Origin: Blochmannia endosymbiont of Camponotus nipponensis | GTDB lineage: Bacteria; Pseudomonadota; Gammaproteobacteria; Enterobacterales; Enterobacteriaceae | Direction: 5' to 3' | NCBI RefSeq assembly: GCF_009827135.1 | Contig: NZ_CP046534.1 | Location: 720,001 to 752,000 of the forward strand | DNA: 32,000 nt | Shown here: positions 2,664-30,754 of the stretch, piece by piece | How positions within the stretch are numbered: position 1 is the first letter of the stretch | How the letters are laid out: every line of letters starts with the position of its first letter | Position numbers and translations under genes: made by a program | Notes under the pieces: model-generated | Databases searched by the model: none | The model's input: only the letters and a program-made list of their open reading frames with translations | What the model was told of the DNA's origin: nothing

Positions 2664-3308
2664 ATGAAGATTTATATAATATATTCGGTTGGCATTTTAT
2701 TCTTAACGGCTTGTGCGCAGAGAAACGTTGAAGAAAACATTGGACGAACATTATATACTGATTCAAAGTACGCGATTATTTATTCTTCTAAACGAATTAC
2801 ACCATCTATATATAATGATTACATTCATCGTTGTGCTATGAATTATGGAGTAGACGCTTCTTTAGTAAAAGCTATCATTCAAGTAGAATCTAATTACGAT
2901 CCTACTGTAATTAGTAAATCTAATGCTGTGGGTTTGATGCAGCTTAAAGCGGATACTGCAGGAAAAGATGCTTATCGTTTGAAAGGATGGAAAGGAAAGC
3001 CTAGTATTCATGAATTAAAAAATGCTGCTATTAATATTGATCTTGGTACTGCTTATTTATCTATATTGCAAAAACAATTAGAAGGAATTATTAATTTAAA
3101 AACCAGACGTTACGCTATAATTGTTGCTTATGTGAACGGTGTAAGTGCATTGTTAAAAACATTTTCTATTGATCGCAATTATGCAATCAAGAAAATAAAT
3201 AGACTTAATCCAGAACAATTTTTCCAACATATACAATCTCATCATCCATCTACACAAGCACAACGTTATTTATTTAAAGTTAATTCTATTTATATTGAAC
3301 AGAATTAA
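2664..3308 (+). CDS. emtA: Lipoprotein lytic murein transglycosylase (EmtA/MltE type)
   Basis: The signal peptide ends in the lipobox L-T-A-C (ILFLTAC). The SLT catalytic block is AIIQVESNYDPTVISKSNAVGLMQLKADTAGKDAY. Its length and C-terminus (HHPSTQAQRYLFK) parallel E. coli EmtA. Confidence 0.85.
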   Translation: MKIYIIYSVGILFLTACAQRNVEENIGRTLYTDSKYAIIYSSKRITPSIYNDYIHRCAMNYGVDASLVKAIIQVESNYDPTVISKSNAVGLMQLKADTAGKDAYRLKGWKGKPSIHELKNAAINIDLGTAYLSILQKQLEGIINLKTRRYAIIVAYVNGVSALLKTFSIDRNYAIKKINRLNPEQFFQHIQSHHPSTQAQRYLFKVNSIYIEQN

Positions 3309-3940
3309 TTATAATAATGATGTATTTGATATTAATGCTTTTAATAAAATTTTTACGAGCATATATATGGTGATAATTATTTGATGAAGCATAATTATTA
3401 ATATGTTTATTGATTGTAGTTAATTTTTATATCTAACTTTAATGGGTATCAATATATTTGATTACTGTCATTATCGTAATAAATGGTAAAAAGATGTCAA
3501 TAGAATATTTAAGATTAATGAATGGTTATTCTGATCCATTTAAATGGGTGATAATCATGTTAAAATATCAGGATACTTTGTTATTATGTGGTTTAATTAA
3601 AAATTAATTACAAGTTGTAGATCATTTTATATATAAAAATTGATAAATATATGGTTATTAACTATTGTAATTTGCGAGTTGTTAAATTTTAATAAAAAGG
3701 GAAGAGTAAATTTGATTAAATTGATTTTTTCATAAATTTATTAATGAATGCTTTATATTATAATAGTTGTTTCTGAAACAAATAATATATATATGTATAT
3801 ATATATTATTTTGACTATATATTTTTAATATATTATCAGCAAATGTTTCGGTTATAAGTATTTAAGTTAGGTAATTGTTATAACGGGAACATTGGGATAA
3901 CTTAAATTTTCATGTTAGTTAGTTTGATATTTGATTTATG

Positions 3941-4576
3941 TCATGTAATTTCAGTACATTGCATAGTACAGTCACTGCATTCAAATCCTACTTCTGGATG
4001 AAAGGTACAAATATTGCATGAGTTTATTTCTTTGCAACAATATAATTTAATACGATCTTTTTTAGTATATAAGTATGCTAAACCGATGCTTAATAAAATT
4101 ATAAGCATTATTGTTAAATTCATTATATATTTTACCTGATTTTTTATGTTGATCAGAATAGGTGATGACGAGTGATTGTTTTGATCCTCAGTTTTTTTCA
4201 GAGGAGAGGATATGTAGAGTTGATCTTCATTAATTTTTTCTATAATTAATTGATTATTTAATCTTAATCCTCGTTTAGGAATTGTTACAATAGACGAAGC
4301 TTCTAATCCAAAAGAAGTAAAAGTTTTTCTTATTAAACTAATTTGTTGATTTAAGTTTCCATTAGATGGTTCAAGTCCATAAGCTCTCCAAACGATTGAA
4401 AACAAGTGTTCTCGAGTAACTGGCGCGCAAACATCAGTATTCCGTTGTTTAATTAGTTCTTCTAATACCCGTCCAGCAGAATTAGACAATTTTACTGATG
4501 TATTAGAATCAGTTAATGATGTTAAAACATATTCTGTAGTGTCAAATATTATGGTAGATTGAATTACATATTTCAT
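3941..4576 (-). CDS. ToxR/CadC-like membrane-anchored winged-helix transcriptional regulator with a short Cys-rich periplasmic tail
   Basis: Residues ~25-108 align with the ToxR wHTH: LSNSAGRVLEELIK..VTREHLFSIVWRAYGLEPSNGNLNQQISLIRKTF...IVTIPKRGLRL versus ToxR LGSNESRILWLL..ISRNDLHDFVWREQGFEVDDSSLTQAISTLRKML..VKTVPKRGYQL. There is one hydrophobic segment, NLTIMLIILLSIGLAYLY (aa ~152-170). A 41-aa tail follows with Cys at 180, 181, 187, 190, 200, 203 and 207. A 636-nt ORF in DNA this AT-rich is unlikely to stay open by chance. Confidence 0.75.
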   Translation of the reverse strand: MKYVIQSTIIFDTTEYVLTSLTDSNTSVKLSNSAGRVLEELIKQRNTDVCAPVTREHLFSIVWRAYGLEPSNGNLNQQISLIRKTFTSFGLEASSIVTIPKRGLRLNNQLIIEKINEDQLYISSPLKKTEDQNNHSSSPILINIKNQVKYIMNLTIMLIILLSIGLAYLYTKKDRIKLYCCKEINSCNICTFHPEVGFECSDCTMQCTEIT

Positions 4577-5195
4577 TTAGTTACTCTATATGAACTGTAA
4601 ATTGACAAAGTCAGATTCATGTCAGTTGTTTATATAAAATTTAAATAATATTATTTTTTAATTGAAATATATAAAAACTATAAAAAGTATTTTATTATGA
4701 AAATTTGCTTTAACATGATTTTAATTATATTATTTTAGATTATGGTAGTTTTACAATTTATTTCAGATAGTATAATACCATACCATAAAAAAGCTAGCAT
4801 GTTAGTACATGTATTGTTTCAGGAGAAATATAAAATGATACATATTATATATGTTAGTACGCCAATGATATATAAATTATTATTCAATCAATTTTAGCGT
4901 TAAATTGAATAGTATGCGTTAATTAAACTTTAGTTGAGCACAGAATAATAAGTATTGTAAGTCTCCATTAGTGTTAAGATAATATTTTTAATTTAATGTT
5001 ATATATAATAATTTGATTTTTTAAAGTATCATGATATTTGTAAATACTGCAAAAATGCATGTTTAGCTATATATGGTTTCAATTGATGTTGTTAGTATCA
5101 TTGATTTATATGATTTTTATTGAAAAAAATTAATGACCAGTATAATTGTGATGATTGTATGAGTATGTTGAAAACATGTAATAGTTATAAATATC

Positions 5196-7328
5196 ATGTA
5201 TATGGTATATGATGTATGGTGTATGGTGTATTTTTTATATTTTAAAATATTAATTCATATAATGTTATTTATAATATATTTCACATTGATTATGTTGATT
5301 GTTAATCATACTCAAGCTAATTCAAACGATGCATCATTTCACGGTAGATCCGAGGAAGTTTCCGTATCGGTGTCTGATGATATACAAAATTTGCCTATAT
5401 TATTACAAGAAAAAGTGCACGACGATATCGTAACTATTATTTTACCAAAAAATTCTCCATTAATTTTTACCTCTTCTCCCTCAAAATTTTTGCAATCGTT
5501 TTATGTAACTGATATGTCTGATTATTTAAAAAATATTGTTGGTTTTAATTCTATTCGTAACGGAGGAGTAAATAACGAACCAACATTTCGTGGAATGTTT
5601 GGGTCTCGGATACGTATTTTGATGAATAGTGGTGAAATACTTGGAGCTTGTTTTTCTCACATGGATCCTGTTAGTGCTTATATTTCTCCAAACACTTTTG
5701 ATATTTTAAATATTATTAAGGGCCCTCAAACGGTACTATGGGGTCCTGTAACATCTGGAGGTACATTACAATTTGAACGATATCATCCTCGTTTTGATAG
5801 ATCAAAAATTCAATTACGTAGCAATGTAGCAATTGGCGCAAATAATAGAATGGATAAAAATATAGATAGTATCATAGGGAATAAATATGGTTATCTTAGA
5901 TTAATAGGAGAGGTTTCTAGTGCGGATGATTATTATGATGGTAATAAACACCGAGTACATTCTGCATGGTATAAATGGAATGCTGATGCAATTTTATCAT
6001 TCAATATTGGTACGGACACATGTTTGGAAGTTAGTTTGGGACAAGGCAATGGTCATGCAAATTATGCTGCTCGATCTATGGATGGGTTATGTTTTGCTAG
6101 AGAAAGTTATGCAATAAAAATAGAAACTTCGAATATAAGTGAAACATTAGATAAAATTGAATTGCAAGCATGGCGCAATTATGTAAACCATATTATGGCT
6201 GATACTACTATACCTTATATTACAAAATCTTCTACTAAAAAATGTTGTGGTTTCAGTGAAAATTTCAATAACAATATTGATCGATTGATATGGGGGGTTC
6301 GAGGTATCGCTGTGTCTCAGTGGGATAATATTAAGTGTTACAGTGGTGCGGATCTACAAATTAATAAACATAGAAAATACGCACAATCTGATGCTAATTG
6401 GAAAACAGATATTATTTCTCAAGATACTGGTGTATTTACCGAATTGATTGTTGATTCGTTGTCAGATAGAAGATTAGTTGGCGGCGCGCGACTGGAATAT
6501 GGTGTAATTAATTTTAATAATCATTCTAAGTATAAACGAAATGCTATAGTATATCCTGCTGGATTTATACGATATGAAAATAATGTTAATCCATTATTGT
6601 CGTATTATATTGGTGTGGGAACAAGCTTTCGTTTTCCAGATTACTGGGAATTATTTTCTACTAAATTGGGTGAAAATCTTAATATTGAAAATATTTTTCA
6701 ATTAAAACCTGAAAGATCCATACAAATAGATACAGGAGTATATTTTCAGCATCTACAAACAAACGGATGGATATCATCTTATGTTGGGTATGTTAAAGAT
6801 TTTATTTTATCTGATTACAATAATCATGCTACCACATCAGATGATACTAATTATGCAAAAAACACTCATGTTAAAATATGTGGCGCTGAAGCAGGATTAA
6901 ATTATAAATTTAATGATCATTGGAGTACTGAAGGCAATATTTCATGGGCTTGGGGCGTTAATATAAACGATAATTTTATTTTGCCTACAATTCCTCCATT
7001 GGAAGGGAAAATAACATGTCAATGGACACACGGATATTACAGTATAGCTACTTTATGGAGGTTTATGTTAGCACAACAGTCTAATAATAATGAGTGGTTC
7101 CATACAAGAATAAATTGTAATACCCCAGGTTTTGGAATATTATCCGTACATCTAGCATGGACGAGTTCTCGATTTTATAAATTTAGCGTTGGTGTAGATA
7201 ATTTATTAAATCATAATTATAGAGAATACTTGAGTTCACATATTCATAAACGATTTGGATATCCTGATAGAAAGTTAATTTATGAACCAGGACGTACTTG
7301 GTGGGTTAAAGTAGGGATGATATTCTAA
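5196..7328 (+). CDS. TonB-dependent outer-membrane receptor, OprC/NosA (copper) family
   Basis: The plug motif is NEPTFRGMFGSRIRILMNSGEILGACFSHMDPVSAYISP ... IKGPQTVLWGP. A TonB-box-like DDIVTII lies near the N-terminus. The barrel is long and ends in a terminal aromatic (WWVKVGMIF). CxxxM (C152, M156) and HxM (H332, M334) are present. The start is uncertain: in-frame ATGs occur at 5196, 5223 and 5262. The signal-peptide-like MLFIIYFTLIMLIVNHTQA|NS begins at 5262. Confidence 0.88.
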   Translation: MYMVYDVWCMVYFLYFKILIHIMLFIIYFTLIMLIVNHTQANSNDASFHGRSEEVSVSVSDDIQNLPILLQEKVHDDIVTIILPKNSPLIFTSSPSKFLQSFYVTDMSDYLKNIVGFNSIRNGGVNNEPTFRGMFGSRIRILMNSGEILGACFSHMDPVSAYISPNTFDILNIIKGPQTVLWGPVTSGGTLQFERYHPRFDRSKIQLRSNVAIGANNRMDKNIDSIIGNKYGYLRLIGEVSSADDYYDGNKHRVHSAWYKWNADAILSFNIGTDTCLEVSLGQGNGHANYAARSMDGLCFARESYAIKIETSNISETLDKIELQAWRNYVNHIMADTTIPYITKSSTKKCCGFSENFNNNIDRLIWGVRGIAVSQWDNIKCYSGADLQINKHRKYAQSDANWKTDIISQDTGVFTELIVDSLSDRRLVGGARLEYGVINFNNHSKYKRNAIVYPAGFIRYENNVNPLLSYYIGVGTSFRFPDYWELFSTKLGENLNIENIFQLKPERSIQIDTGVYFQHLQTNGWISSYVGYVKDFILSDYNNHATTSDDTNYAKNTHVKICGAEAGLNYKFNDHWSTEGNISWAWGVNINDNFILPTIPPLEGKITCQWTHGYYSIATLWRFMLAQQSNNNEWFHTRINCNTPGFGILSVHLAWTSSRFYKFSVGVDNLLNHNYREYLSSHIHKRFGYPDRKLIYEPGRTWWVKVGMIF

Positions 7329-30112: not shown

Positions 30113-30754
30113 ATGAATCATATTAAAAGATATCAGATTTTATGTAAATTACGAGATAATGATGTTGATCCATCTATTGAATTAGTTTATCGATCGGAAT
30201 TTGAGTTGTTAATTGCAGTATTACTTTCAGCTCAAACAAATGATATCCAAGTGAACAAAGTAACAGAGAATTTATTTAAGATAGCTAATACACCAAAAAG
30301 TATGTTGCGTTTAGGGATAAATGGGATCAAAAACTATATTAAATCTCTCGGTTTGTATAATACTAAAGCTAAAAATATTATTAAAAGTTGTCATGTGTTA
30401 ATAGAACATTATAACGGCGTACTACCATCGAATCGTGTTGAATTAGAGTCTTTACCTGGAGTTGGACGTAAAACTGCTAATATTATTTTAAACTTAATTT
30501 TTGGCCGGCCTACAATTGCAGTGGATAGACATGTATTTAGATTTTGTAATCGTAGTCGTTTTGCATTAGGAAAAAATGTTTTGTCTGTAGAAAAGAAATT
30601 ATTATCGGTAGTTCCAAAAGAATTTAAGAATAATTGTCATCAGTGGCTAGTGTTGCATGGCAAGAATGTTTGTCAAGCTAAACGTCCGAATTGTCGCGTT
30701 TGCGTGATTAAAGATTTATGTGAATTTAAAGAAAAACAAATTTATATAATATAA
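30113..30754 (+). CDS. nth: Endonuclease III
   Basis: FELLIAVLLSAQTNDIQVNK and the HhH-GPD block LPGVGRKTANIILN are present, with the catalytic-region TIAVDRHVFR. The C-terminal 4Fe-4S ligands are C-x6-C-x2-C-x5-C (CQAKRPNCRVCVIKDLC). Confidence 0.95.
   Translation: MNHIKRYQILCKLRDNDVDPSIELVYRSEFELLIAVLLSAQTNDIQVNKVTENLFKIANTPKSMLRLGINGIKNYIKSLGLYNTKAKNIIKSCHVLIEHYNGVLPSNRVELESLPGVGRKTANIILNLIFGRPTIAVDRHVFRFCNRSRFALGKNVLSVEKKLLSVVPKEFKNNCHQWLVLHGKNVCQAKRPNCRVCVIKDLCEFKEKQIYII

Follow-up and report, generated by a model that had tools for sequence, protein, structure and literature searches.

A YqeI-Type Membrane Regulator with a Truncated Sensor Domain beside the Copper Receptor Gene oprC in Blochmannia

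Gene Content of the yqeI-oprC Locus

We analyzed a 32,000-nucleotide stretch of DNA from the Blochmannia endosymbiont of Camponotus nipponensis (NZ_CP046534.1, positions 720,001 to 752,000; hereafter the window, to which all coordinates refer), in which the gene for the membrane-tethered regulator YqeI and the gene for the TonB-dependent copper receptor OprC are transcribed divergently from a common spacer. The original prediction described these two genes as a dedicated one-component module for metal sensing and uptake at the cell envelope, and both open reading frames (ORFs) of the claimed divergent pair were recovered at the positions given in Table 1. The two genes have been annotated in Blochmannia before (PMC1360075, PMC4389277). 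The oprC start common to Blochmannia is the ATG at 5202, which yields a protein of 708 aa and agrees with the public gene call; the spacer thus measures 625 bp, compared with 619 bp when counted to position 5196 and 685 bp when translation is taken to begin at Met23.

Domain Architecture of YqeI and Loss of Its Partner

The regulator matches an NCBI Blochmannia protein with 100% identity and shares 38-52% identity over the full query with proteins from Sodalis, Wigglesworthia, and Acerihabitans, some of which are annotated as YqeI. Homologs named YqeI are found in Sodalis and Wigglesworthia, and further ones in Acerihabitans, Biostraticola, and a genome labelled Martelella alba, all of them about 270 aa long. 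The B. floridanus ortholog Bfl390 was named yqeI and recognized as a winged helix-turn-helix (wHTH) regulator in 2006 (PMC1360075). The Pfam domain Trans_reg_C scores 20.4 bits in the protein, under the cut-off of 26.2, and is on record for many of the homologs. In the AlphaFold model, which was built on 48 homologs, residues 1-115 have a predicted local distance difference test (pLDDT) value above 90, and the best Protein Data Bank match of the wHTH domain in Foldseek is to the Vibrio cholerae ToxR-DNA complexes (target TM-score 0.89, E = 3.7e-08, 28% identity). The recognition helix and wing (SNGNLNQQ.S.IRK and T.PKRG) are invariant in the 48 YqeI homologs, with the DNA-contact residues unchanged. 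The protein contains one hydrophobic segment, residues 151-169, with a Kyte-Doolittle maximum of 2.33. The earlier description of the regulator as a ToxR-like, membrane-tethered wHTH protein is therefore borne out by the structural match to ToxR and the one membrane segment, the topology being predicted.

YqeI/YqeJ, equivalent to MarT/FidL, form a co-component system of the VtrA/VtrC-ToxR/ToxS superfamily, in which the C-terminal strand of the periplasmic β2-α-β3 domain of the regulator docks a lipocalin-like partner and a conserved disulfide is located in the last strands of that domain (Kinch et al., 2022, PMC9214523). The model of the full-length homolog from Acerihabitans arboris comprises strands 177-182 and 185-189, helix 198-209, and strands 220-226, 241-248, and 254-261. 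For the tail of Blochmannia YqeI, strands 177-183 and 186-191 and helix 204-210 are predicted with low confidence (pLDDT about 40-55), after which the chain ends; a complete β2-α-β3 domain is lacking, and the last three strands of the approximately 100-residue periplasmic domain are gone. The three distal Cys residues, which are present in 12, 11, and 11 of the 12 long forms, are likewise lacking in Blochmannia. Since the Blochmannia chain stops directly behind the position of the helix in the full-length domain, the alignments and models identify its tail as what is left of the N-terminal part of a sensor domain that has been truncated and has lost its partner.

In each of the 11 free-living Sodalis-clade loci fetched, tblastn with the Biostraticola FidL as query located the partner gene, fidL/yqeJ, directly behind yqeI. 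The same search identified no fidL in the window or in the other Blochmannia loci; fidL is also absent from Sodalis sp. Psp and Wigglesworthia, and no yqeJ/fidL partner is listed in the published Blochmannia gene tables. The ancestor of Blochmannia thus lost the gene for the lipocalin-like partner, and the three C-terminal strands of YqeI, carrying the partner-docking edge and the conserved disulfide, were lost as well, which left the DNA-binding domain, the membrane anchor, and a hairpin-plus-helix stub of about 40 residues. The regulator takes other forms in other symbionts. In Wigglesworthia glossinidia (loci L002/L014, 8001-8804), YqeI is full-length with all four periplasmic Cys residues and has no FidL partner; this ancient endosymbiont has kept the same regulator in a different manner. 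Sodalis sp. Psp has no fidL, and of the three distal Cys residues its YqeI keeps only one, which may represent a parallel or a shared stage of sensor decay.

Conservation of yqeI in Genomes with and without oprC

Purifying selection acts on yqeI in all Blochmannia examined, also where oprC and tonB are absent. The yqeI ORF is uninterrupted in each of the 36 Blochmannia-type sequences, as well as in all complete genomes that were examined. Among close Blochmannia relatives, the ratio of nonsynonymous to synonymous substitution rates (dN/dS) is 0.13-0.17 for the whole gene; taken separately, the wHTH domain has a value of about 0.1 and the tail one of 0.04-0.38. The tail, with a dN of 0.04-0.11, is approximately as constrained as the wHTH domain, and the linker evolves fastest. 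For comparison, the dN/dS of oprC is about 0.3 in three close Blochmannia.

The oprC and tonB genes were lost in parallel in Blochmannia (Williams and Wernegreen, PMC4389277), and in Table S3 of that study tonB and oprC appear in the Camponotus column only, whereas yqeI appears in all three columns. In the genomes of B. turneri (CP010048; Blochmannia of Polyrhachis turneri) and B. obliquus (CP010049; Blochmannia of Colobopsis obliquus), infA is followed by yqeI and no oprC gene is present; no oprC remnant in the gaps of these two genomes, and no DUF2946 or fidL remnant in the window, was found with E < 1 at the relevant places. Both genomes encode an intact YqeI, of 229 and 214 aa, respectively, in which C181, C187, C190, and C200 are kept and position 180 is Leu or Phe, and the dN/dS of the wHTH domain between the two lineages is about 0.18. 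Thus, yqeI and oprC are not retained and lost jointly, and since yqeI remains constrained in lineages that have neither oprC nor tonB, its selected function needs neither OprC nor TonB.

Table 1. Coordinates of the genes and sequence features at the yqeI-oprC locus.
Feature	Position	Strand	Basis
yqeI, 211-aa membrane-tethered regulator, ToxR/VtrA superfamily (YqeI/MarT family), C-terminally shortened	3941-4576	-	ORF call
Cytoplasmic winged helix-turn-helix DNA-binding domain, residues 1-115 (predicted)	4232-4576	-	AlphaFold, Foldseek
Single transmembrane helix, approximately residues 150-172 (predicted)	4061-4129	-	Kyte-Doolittle; AlphaFold helix 139-173
Extracytoplasmic stub, β-hairpin and short helix, residues 173-211 (predicted)	3944-4060	-	Models, alignments
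Genus-wide Cys core C180-C181-x5-C187-x2-C190 (CC-x5-C-x2-C), on the retained hairpin	4007-4039	-	Alignment
Divergent yqeI-oprC intergenic spacer, 625 bp	4577-5201		Both gene ends
Best-conserved spacer island, TACTAAYATRCTAG-N-TTTTTA on the yqeI strand; candidate promoter or operator	4786-4813		Identity 22/28
oprC, TonB-dependent copper receptor	5196-7328, probable start 5202	+	ORF of 710 aa; 708 aa from 5202
Plug-domain CxxxM copper ligands C152, M156	5649-5663	+	Alignment to OprC C143, M147
Barrel-wall HxM copper ligands H332, M334	6189-6197	+	Alignment to OprC H323, M325

The Cysteine Cluster of the YqeI Tail

The original prediction drew attention to the 41-residue tail (residues 171-211), which contains seven Cys residues (180, 181, 187, 190, 200, 203, and 207), one His, and one Met. 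The enrichment is real: given a background of 1.5% Cys in the other ORFs of the window, seven Cys among 39 residues have a binomial probability of about 2e-6, a value computed post hoc. Another ORF of the window (30113-30754, plus strand, 213 aa) contains 3.8% Cys, equal to the level of YqeI as a whole.

Conservation across Blochmannia extends to four of the seven Cys but not to the other three, nor to the His and the Met. In an alignment of 36 Blochmannia-type homologs with 12 long forms, C187 and C190 are Cys in all 36 Blochmannia-type sequences, C181 in 35, and C180 in 33, whereas C200, C203, and C207 are Cys in only 12, 6, and 7 of them, respectively; the tail His and Met are not conserved in this set. 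The long forms have Phe at position 180, Phe at 181 (Met in one of them), Cys at 187, and Tyr at 190, and no Cys at the three remaining positions. Thus, only C187 is conserved outside Blochmannia, and two Phe residues and one Tyr of the stub were replaced by Cys beside the one ancestral Cys. The four residues most likely form disulfides introduced by DsbA and DsbB that staple the orphaned hairpin, which is plausible because both of these proteins are present in Blochmannia gene tables. The new Cys residues probably stabilize a leftover hairpin, and such a staple would at most couple the stability of the protein to the redox state of the envelope rather than constitute a dedicated metal sensor.

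The Copper Receptor OprC

The claim that the receptor is of the copper OprC/NosA type with a Cys/Met/His/Met site was confirmed by profile and by alignment. The protein contains the Pfam domains Plug (2.2e-09) and TonB_dep_Rec_b-barrel (2.1e-21), passes the NCBIfam equivalog TIGR01778 for TonB-dependent copper receptors (481 bits; cut-off 472.45), and aligns over its full length in phmmer to the crystallized OprC of Pseudomonas aeruginosa (6fok; E = 6.5e-136). The CxxxM-HxM copper site of the latter consists of C143, M147, H323, and M325 (PMC8610252), to which C152, M156, H332, and M334 of the Blochmannia receptor align, and these four residues are invariant in all 32 orthologs compared (20 from Blochmannia and 12 from Sodalis or free-living bacteria). 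The number of Cys residues in OprC orthologs is 10-22 in Blochmannia vs. 2-7 in Sodalis and free-living bacteria, and the gain of Cys in envelope proteins is possibly a wider trend in Blochmannia.

Judged by its sequence, OprC is a functional-looking TonB-dependent importer of ionic copper, and the fact that oprC and tonB have been lost together agrees with OprC being a working TonB client in the lineages that retain it. Table S3 of PMC4389277 lists cyoABCDE, dsbA, dsbB, and tolQRAB-pal in all three columns, while exbB and exbD do not appear in these published Blochmannia gene tables. The receptor would be energized by TonB, with TolQR possibly replacing ExbBD, and, because cyoABCDE is present in Blochmannia, the imported copper would presumably supply the cytochrome bo3 oxidase. 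Since cyoABCDE is kept in all lineages, copper can evidently be obtained without OprC.

Synteny of the Pair across Related Genomes

The pair has counterparts outside Blochmannia, so that the possibility of orthologs never being neighbors elsewhere does not apply. In the free-living Biostraticola tofi, the gene order is DUF2946-oprC <> yqeI-fidL-GGDEF, with oprC and yqeI adjacent and divergent. The 192-aa ORF between the two genes (L018, 4737-5315, minus strand) is similar to the DUF2946 gene found ahead of oprC in Serratia (E = 3e-5), which makes DUF2946-oprC the probable ancestral unit; in the Blochmannia yqeI-oprC spacer, the DUF2946 gene has left no trace. In Sodalis sp. Psp, a 697-aa OprC ortholog (43% identity) is divergent from yqeI beside trxB-lrp-ftsK-lolA. 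At this locus (L003, 1-8816), oprC-yqeI lies one or two genes from trxB, as in Blochmannia; lrp is retained, and ftsK is cut down to a 219-aa fragment. Within Blochmannia, all four other oprC-bearing loci fetched keep the divergent arrangement.

Elsewhere the two genes lie apart. They are not adjacent in Acerihabitans arboris, two more Acerihabitans genomes, an Acerihabitans metagenome-assembled genome, Sodalis RH13, RH21, dw_96, and SoCistrobi, and the genome labelled Martelella alba; altogether, yqeI-fidL has no oprC neighbor in 10 of 11 free-living loci, with oprC located elsewhere. The neighbors of oprC are yfcL and mnmC in free-living Sodalis, and in Sodalis sp. Fle it is flanked by pykA and an amidohydrolase gene; in Serratia, it follows the DUF2946 gene and lies apart from yqeI. 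Wigglesworthia has the order pgpA-yqeI-rpoD with no receptor nearby, and no Wigglesworthia OprC was found among the best 120 of 1,949 matches. Because the pair also occurs in the free-living B. tofi and in Sodalis sp. Psp, it looks like the ancestral neighborhood of one sub-lineage that has been kept by descent.

Conserved Elements in the Intergenic Spacer

Phylogenetic footprinting of four aligned Blochmannia spacers did not recover a conserved direct-repeat operator. The identity is 45% in the three-way alignment of close Blochmannia and 23% in the four-way alignment. Besides the region of the yqeI start codon, three short islands are conserved in the three close strains. In the best of them (Table 1), whose conserved motif is TACTAAYATRCTAGNTTTTTA, the identical positions are shared by these three Blochmannia, and the core CTAGATTTTTA is also found in B. 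floridanus. On the oprC strand, a TATAAT (4771-4776) precedes the island by about 14 bp. Upstream of yqeI, the pattern of the island does not occur in either of the lineages that lack oprC. We regard it as a candidate promoter or operator element of oprC, not as evidence of YqeI binding.

A scan of the spacer for sigma-70 promoters gave 15 matches compared with 18.6 from shuffled sequences, hence no excess, and Rfam returned no match in the interval 3300-5400. Several other candidates were rejected. The 10-mer GTACTAACAT occurs exactly twice in the 32-kb window, at 4799-4808 and 4851-4860 on the minus strand, both in the spacer (expected, 0.07), with its first copy overlapping the best island; it was considered as a direct-repeat operator with copies 52 bp apart, but neither the second copy nor the spacing is conserved in relatives. 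The remaining direct repeats of the spacer are AT-rich and unconvincing, and the frame of a potential 51-aa ORF (4742-4897) is broken by an indel in one relative (L025).

Neighboring Genes

The window is AT-rich, with a G+C content of 19-35%. A Logan contig with the same DNA has the gene order lolA-ftsK-trxB-infA-TBDR-regulator-SLT-MntR-mnmA-purB-lolCDE-lpoB (TBDR, TonB-dependent receptor). The loss of lrp and ihfB from this segment, noted in the original prediction, is substantiated: the orders trxB-ftsK and rpsA-msbA in the window match the published Blochmannia order, with neither gene present there. The flanks of yqeI (3309-3940 and 4577-5201) are unusually long, about 630 bp each, and no remnants of fidL, DUF2946, or other genes were detected in them. 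Two genes from yqeI, a DtxR/MntR-type metalloregulator is encoded at 1831-2331 on the plus strand (Pfam Fe_dep_repress and its C-terminal domain), the second retained regulator in this small region; the equivalent block of genes in B. turneri lacks it (locus L023; Table S3, PMC4389277).

Interpretation of the Pair and Alternative Explanations

With a probability of about 0.7, we interpret the locus as an OprC copper importer that stands beside a partner-less, truncated YqeI, the latter regulating something else and possibly oprC too, with the two genes being neighbors by descent. The core job of YqeI would be the control of some other gene or genes, because yqeI is constrained in Blochmannia without oprC and tonB; where oprC is present, it may be one of the targets. 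The input of YqeI may be lost, in which case the regulator would be constitutive or controlled through its stability.

Several observations weigh against this interpretation. In two symbiont lineages, the genes have stayed adjacent and divergent through extreme genome reduction, the conserved spacer island is restricted to Blochmannia that carry oprC, and ToxR-family regulators often act on neighboring genes, as MarT does on misL (PMC9214523). The replacement of two Phe and one Tyr by Cys requires T-to-G or A-to-G substitutions, which oppose the AT mutational bias, and given that the tail is also constrained, the Cys cluster has probably been selected for something. The CC-x5-C-x2-C motif could bind a thiophilic metal, the disulfide staple is itself a conjecture about a tail modelled with a pLDDT of about 40-55, and the placement of the tail outside the cytoplasm is taken from homology, with a juxtamembrane segment that is net positive.

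Much of this evidence is shared by the dedicated one-component module of the original prediction, in which the Cys-rich tail would sense copper, another thiophilic metal, or envelope redox and the wHTH domain would switch the divergent oprC. The divergent adjacency in Biostraticola, Sodalis sp. Psp, and Camponotus-clade Blochmannia, the genus-wide Cys core in a tail under purifying selection, the invariant copper site of OprC, and a spacer island that is conserved only where oprC is present are all consistent with such a module, which we nevertheless consider unlikely. The regulator outlives the receptor, since yqeI persists together with the Cys core in two Blochmannia lineages that have neither oprC nor tonB, and Wigglesworthia keeps yqeI with no receptor next to it; among free-living loci, the two genes are mostly separate. 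The tail is a relic of the truncation of a ligand-sensing co-component domain, in which only the four-Cys core is genus-wide while three of the seven Cys, the His, and the Met are clade-specific. Moreover, no conserved direct-repeat operator was found in the spacer, and since DsbA and DsbB are present, thiols in the periplasm should be oxidized.

Slightly less probable still is separate control, with oprC being constitutive or regulated by another metalloregulator, for example the DtxR/MntR-type protein encoded two genes away, and YqeI regulating itself or distant genes. The presence of this MntR-type regulator and the independence of yqeI from oprC in other lineages are in line with such an arrangement, which largely overlaps with the explanation that we prefer; by eye, however, no MntR-box-like palindrome was recognized in the spacer. 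A similarly low likelihood is assigned to a rebuilt minimal input, in which, after the loss of the partner and the sensor, the CC-x5-C-x2-C hairpin reads envelope redox or a thiophilic metal such as Cu(I) and tunes oprC in the symbionts of the Camponotus clade and other genes elsewhere. Least credible is the view of yqeI as a functionless remnant nearing loss, with the oprC adjacency and the Cys residues as neutral leftovers: the truncated sensor domain, the lost partner, the variable length of the C-terminus among lineages, and the fast-evolving linker would suit decay, but the ORF is intact in every Blochmannia-type sequence examined, its dN/dS is below that of oprC, the DNA-contact residues are invariant, and the gene has been kept across a genus with many parallel gene losses (PMC4389277).

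Very few transcription factors are kept by obligate endosymbionts. Because yqeI is retained in all Blochmannia examined, as well as in Wigglesworthia and Sodalis-like symbionts, it provides a promising clue to what such cells still have to regulate. As a stripped regulator, Blochmannia YqeI offers a natural example of the decay or the rebuilding of a co-component sensor, and a rebuilt input, if true, would amount to a one-component sensor reconstructed in a genome with almost no regulators. A copper module, if true, would represent a new regulatory logic for copper TonB-dependent receptors; since the comparative data make it unlikely, the practical value of the present analysis lies mainly in correcting the annotation-level picture.

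Comparison with Known Systems

The closest known systems are YqeI/YqeJ of Escherichia coli and MarT/FidL of Salmonella, whose regulators are homologous to Blochmannia YqeI in the wHTH domain, the single transmembrane helix, and the start of the periplasmic domain. The partner gene fidL/yqeJ is located directly downstream in the free-living Sodalis-clade orthologs, whereas none lies beside the Blochmannia yqeI. The Blochmannia protein further differs in lacking strands β3-β5 and the C-terminal disulfide and in having gained three Cys residues beside the ancestral one. ToxR of V. cholerae, the best structural match of the DNA-binding domain, has the same N-in, membrane-tethered architecture that is predicted here for YqeI; however, the periplasmic domain of ToxR is complete and ToxR acts together with ToxS, whereas the Blochmannia locus has neither a complete domain of this kind nor a ToxS. 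The periplasmic Cys residues of ToxR influence the stability of the protein. In CadC of E. coli, a one-component regulator resembling ToxR, signal perception involves a periplasmic disulfide. Unlike Blochmannia YqeI, CadC has a large periplasmic domain that senses pH and lysine, and the match of the CadC NCBIfam model to YqeI is weak and limited to the wHTH domain (16 bits vs. a cut-off of 400).

Regulators of the VtrB type from Vibrio parahaemolyticus are transmembrane proteins with little or no periplasmic domain. As membrane-anchored wHTH proteins without a recognizable extracytoplasmic sensor, they provide a model for how YqeI might operate with no input, although the homology is at the superfamily level only. 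VtrB is listed among the transmembrane transcription regulators (TTRs; PMC10269533). Its gene is switched on transcriptionally by the upstream sensor VtrA/VtrC, and no such upstream regulator is known in Blochmannia.

On the receptor side, OprC of P. aeruginosa and NosA of P. stutzeri (PMC8610252) share the CxxxM-HxM ligands, the plug, and the barrel with Blochmannia OprC. The Met-rich "methionine track" loop of OprC (M339-M348) is not conserved in Blochmannia, where it aligns to KKCCGFSENF, and the DUF2946 gene that usually lies upstream of oprC, as in Serratia and Biostraticola, is missing. CopR and CueR, the known regulators of OprC-type receptors, were not identified at the Blochmannia locus. 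Compared with these systems, the recognition of Blochmannia YqeI as a stripped co-component regulator with a genus-specific Cys cluster appears to be new.

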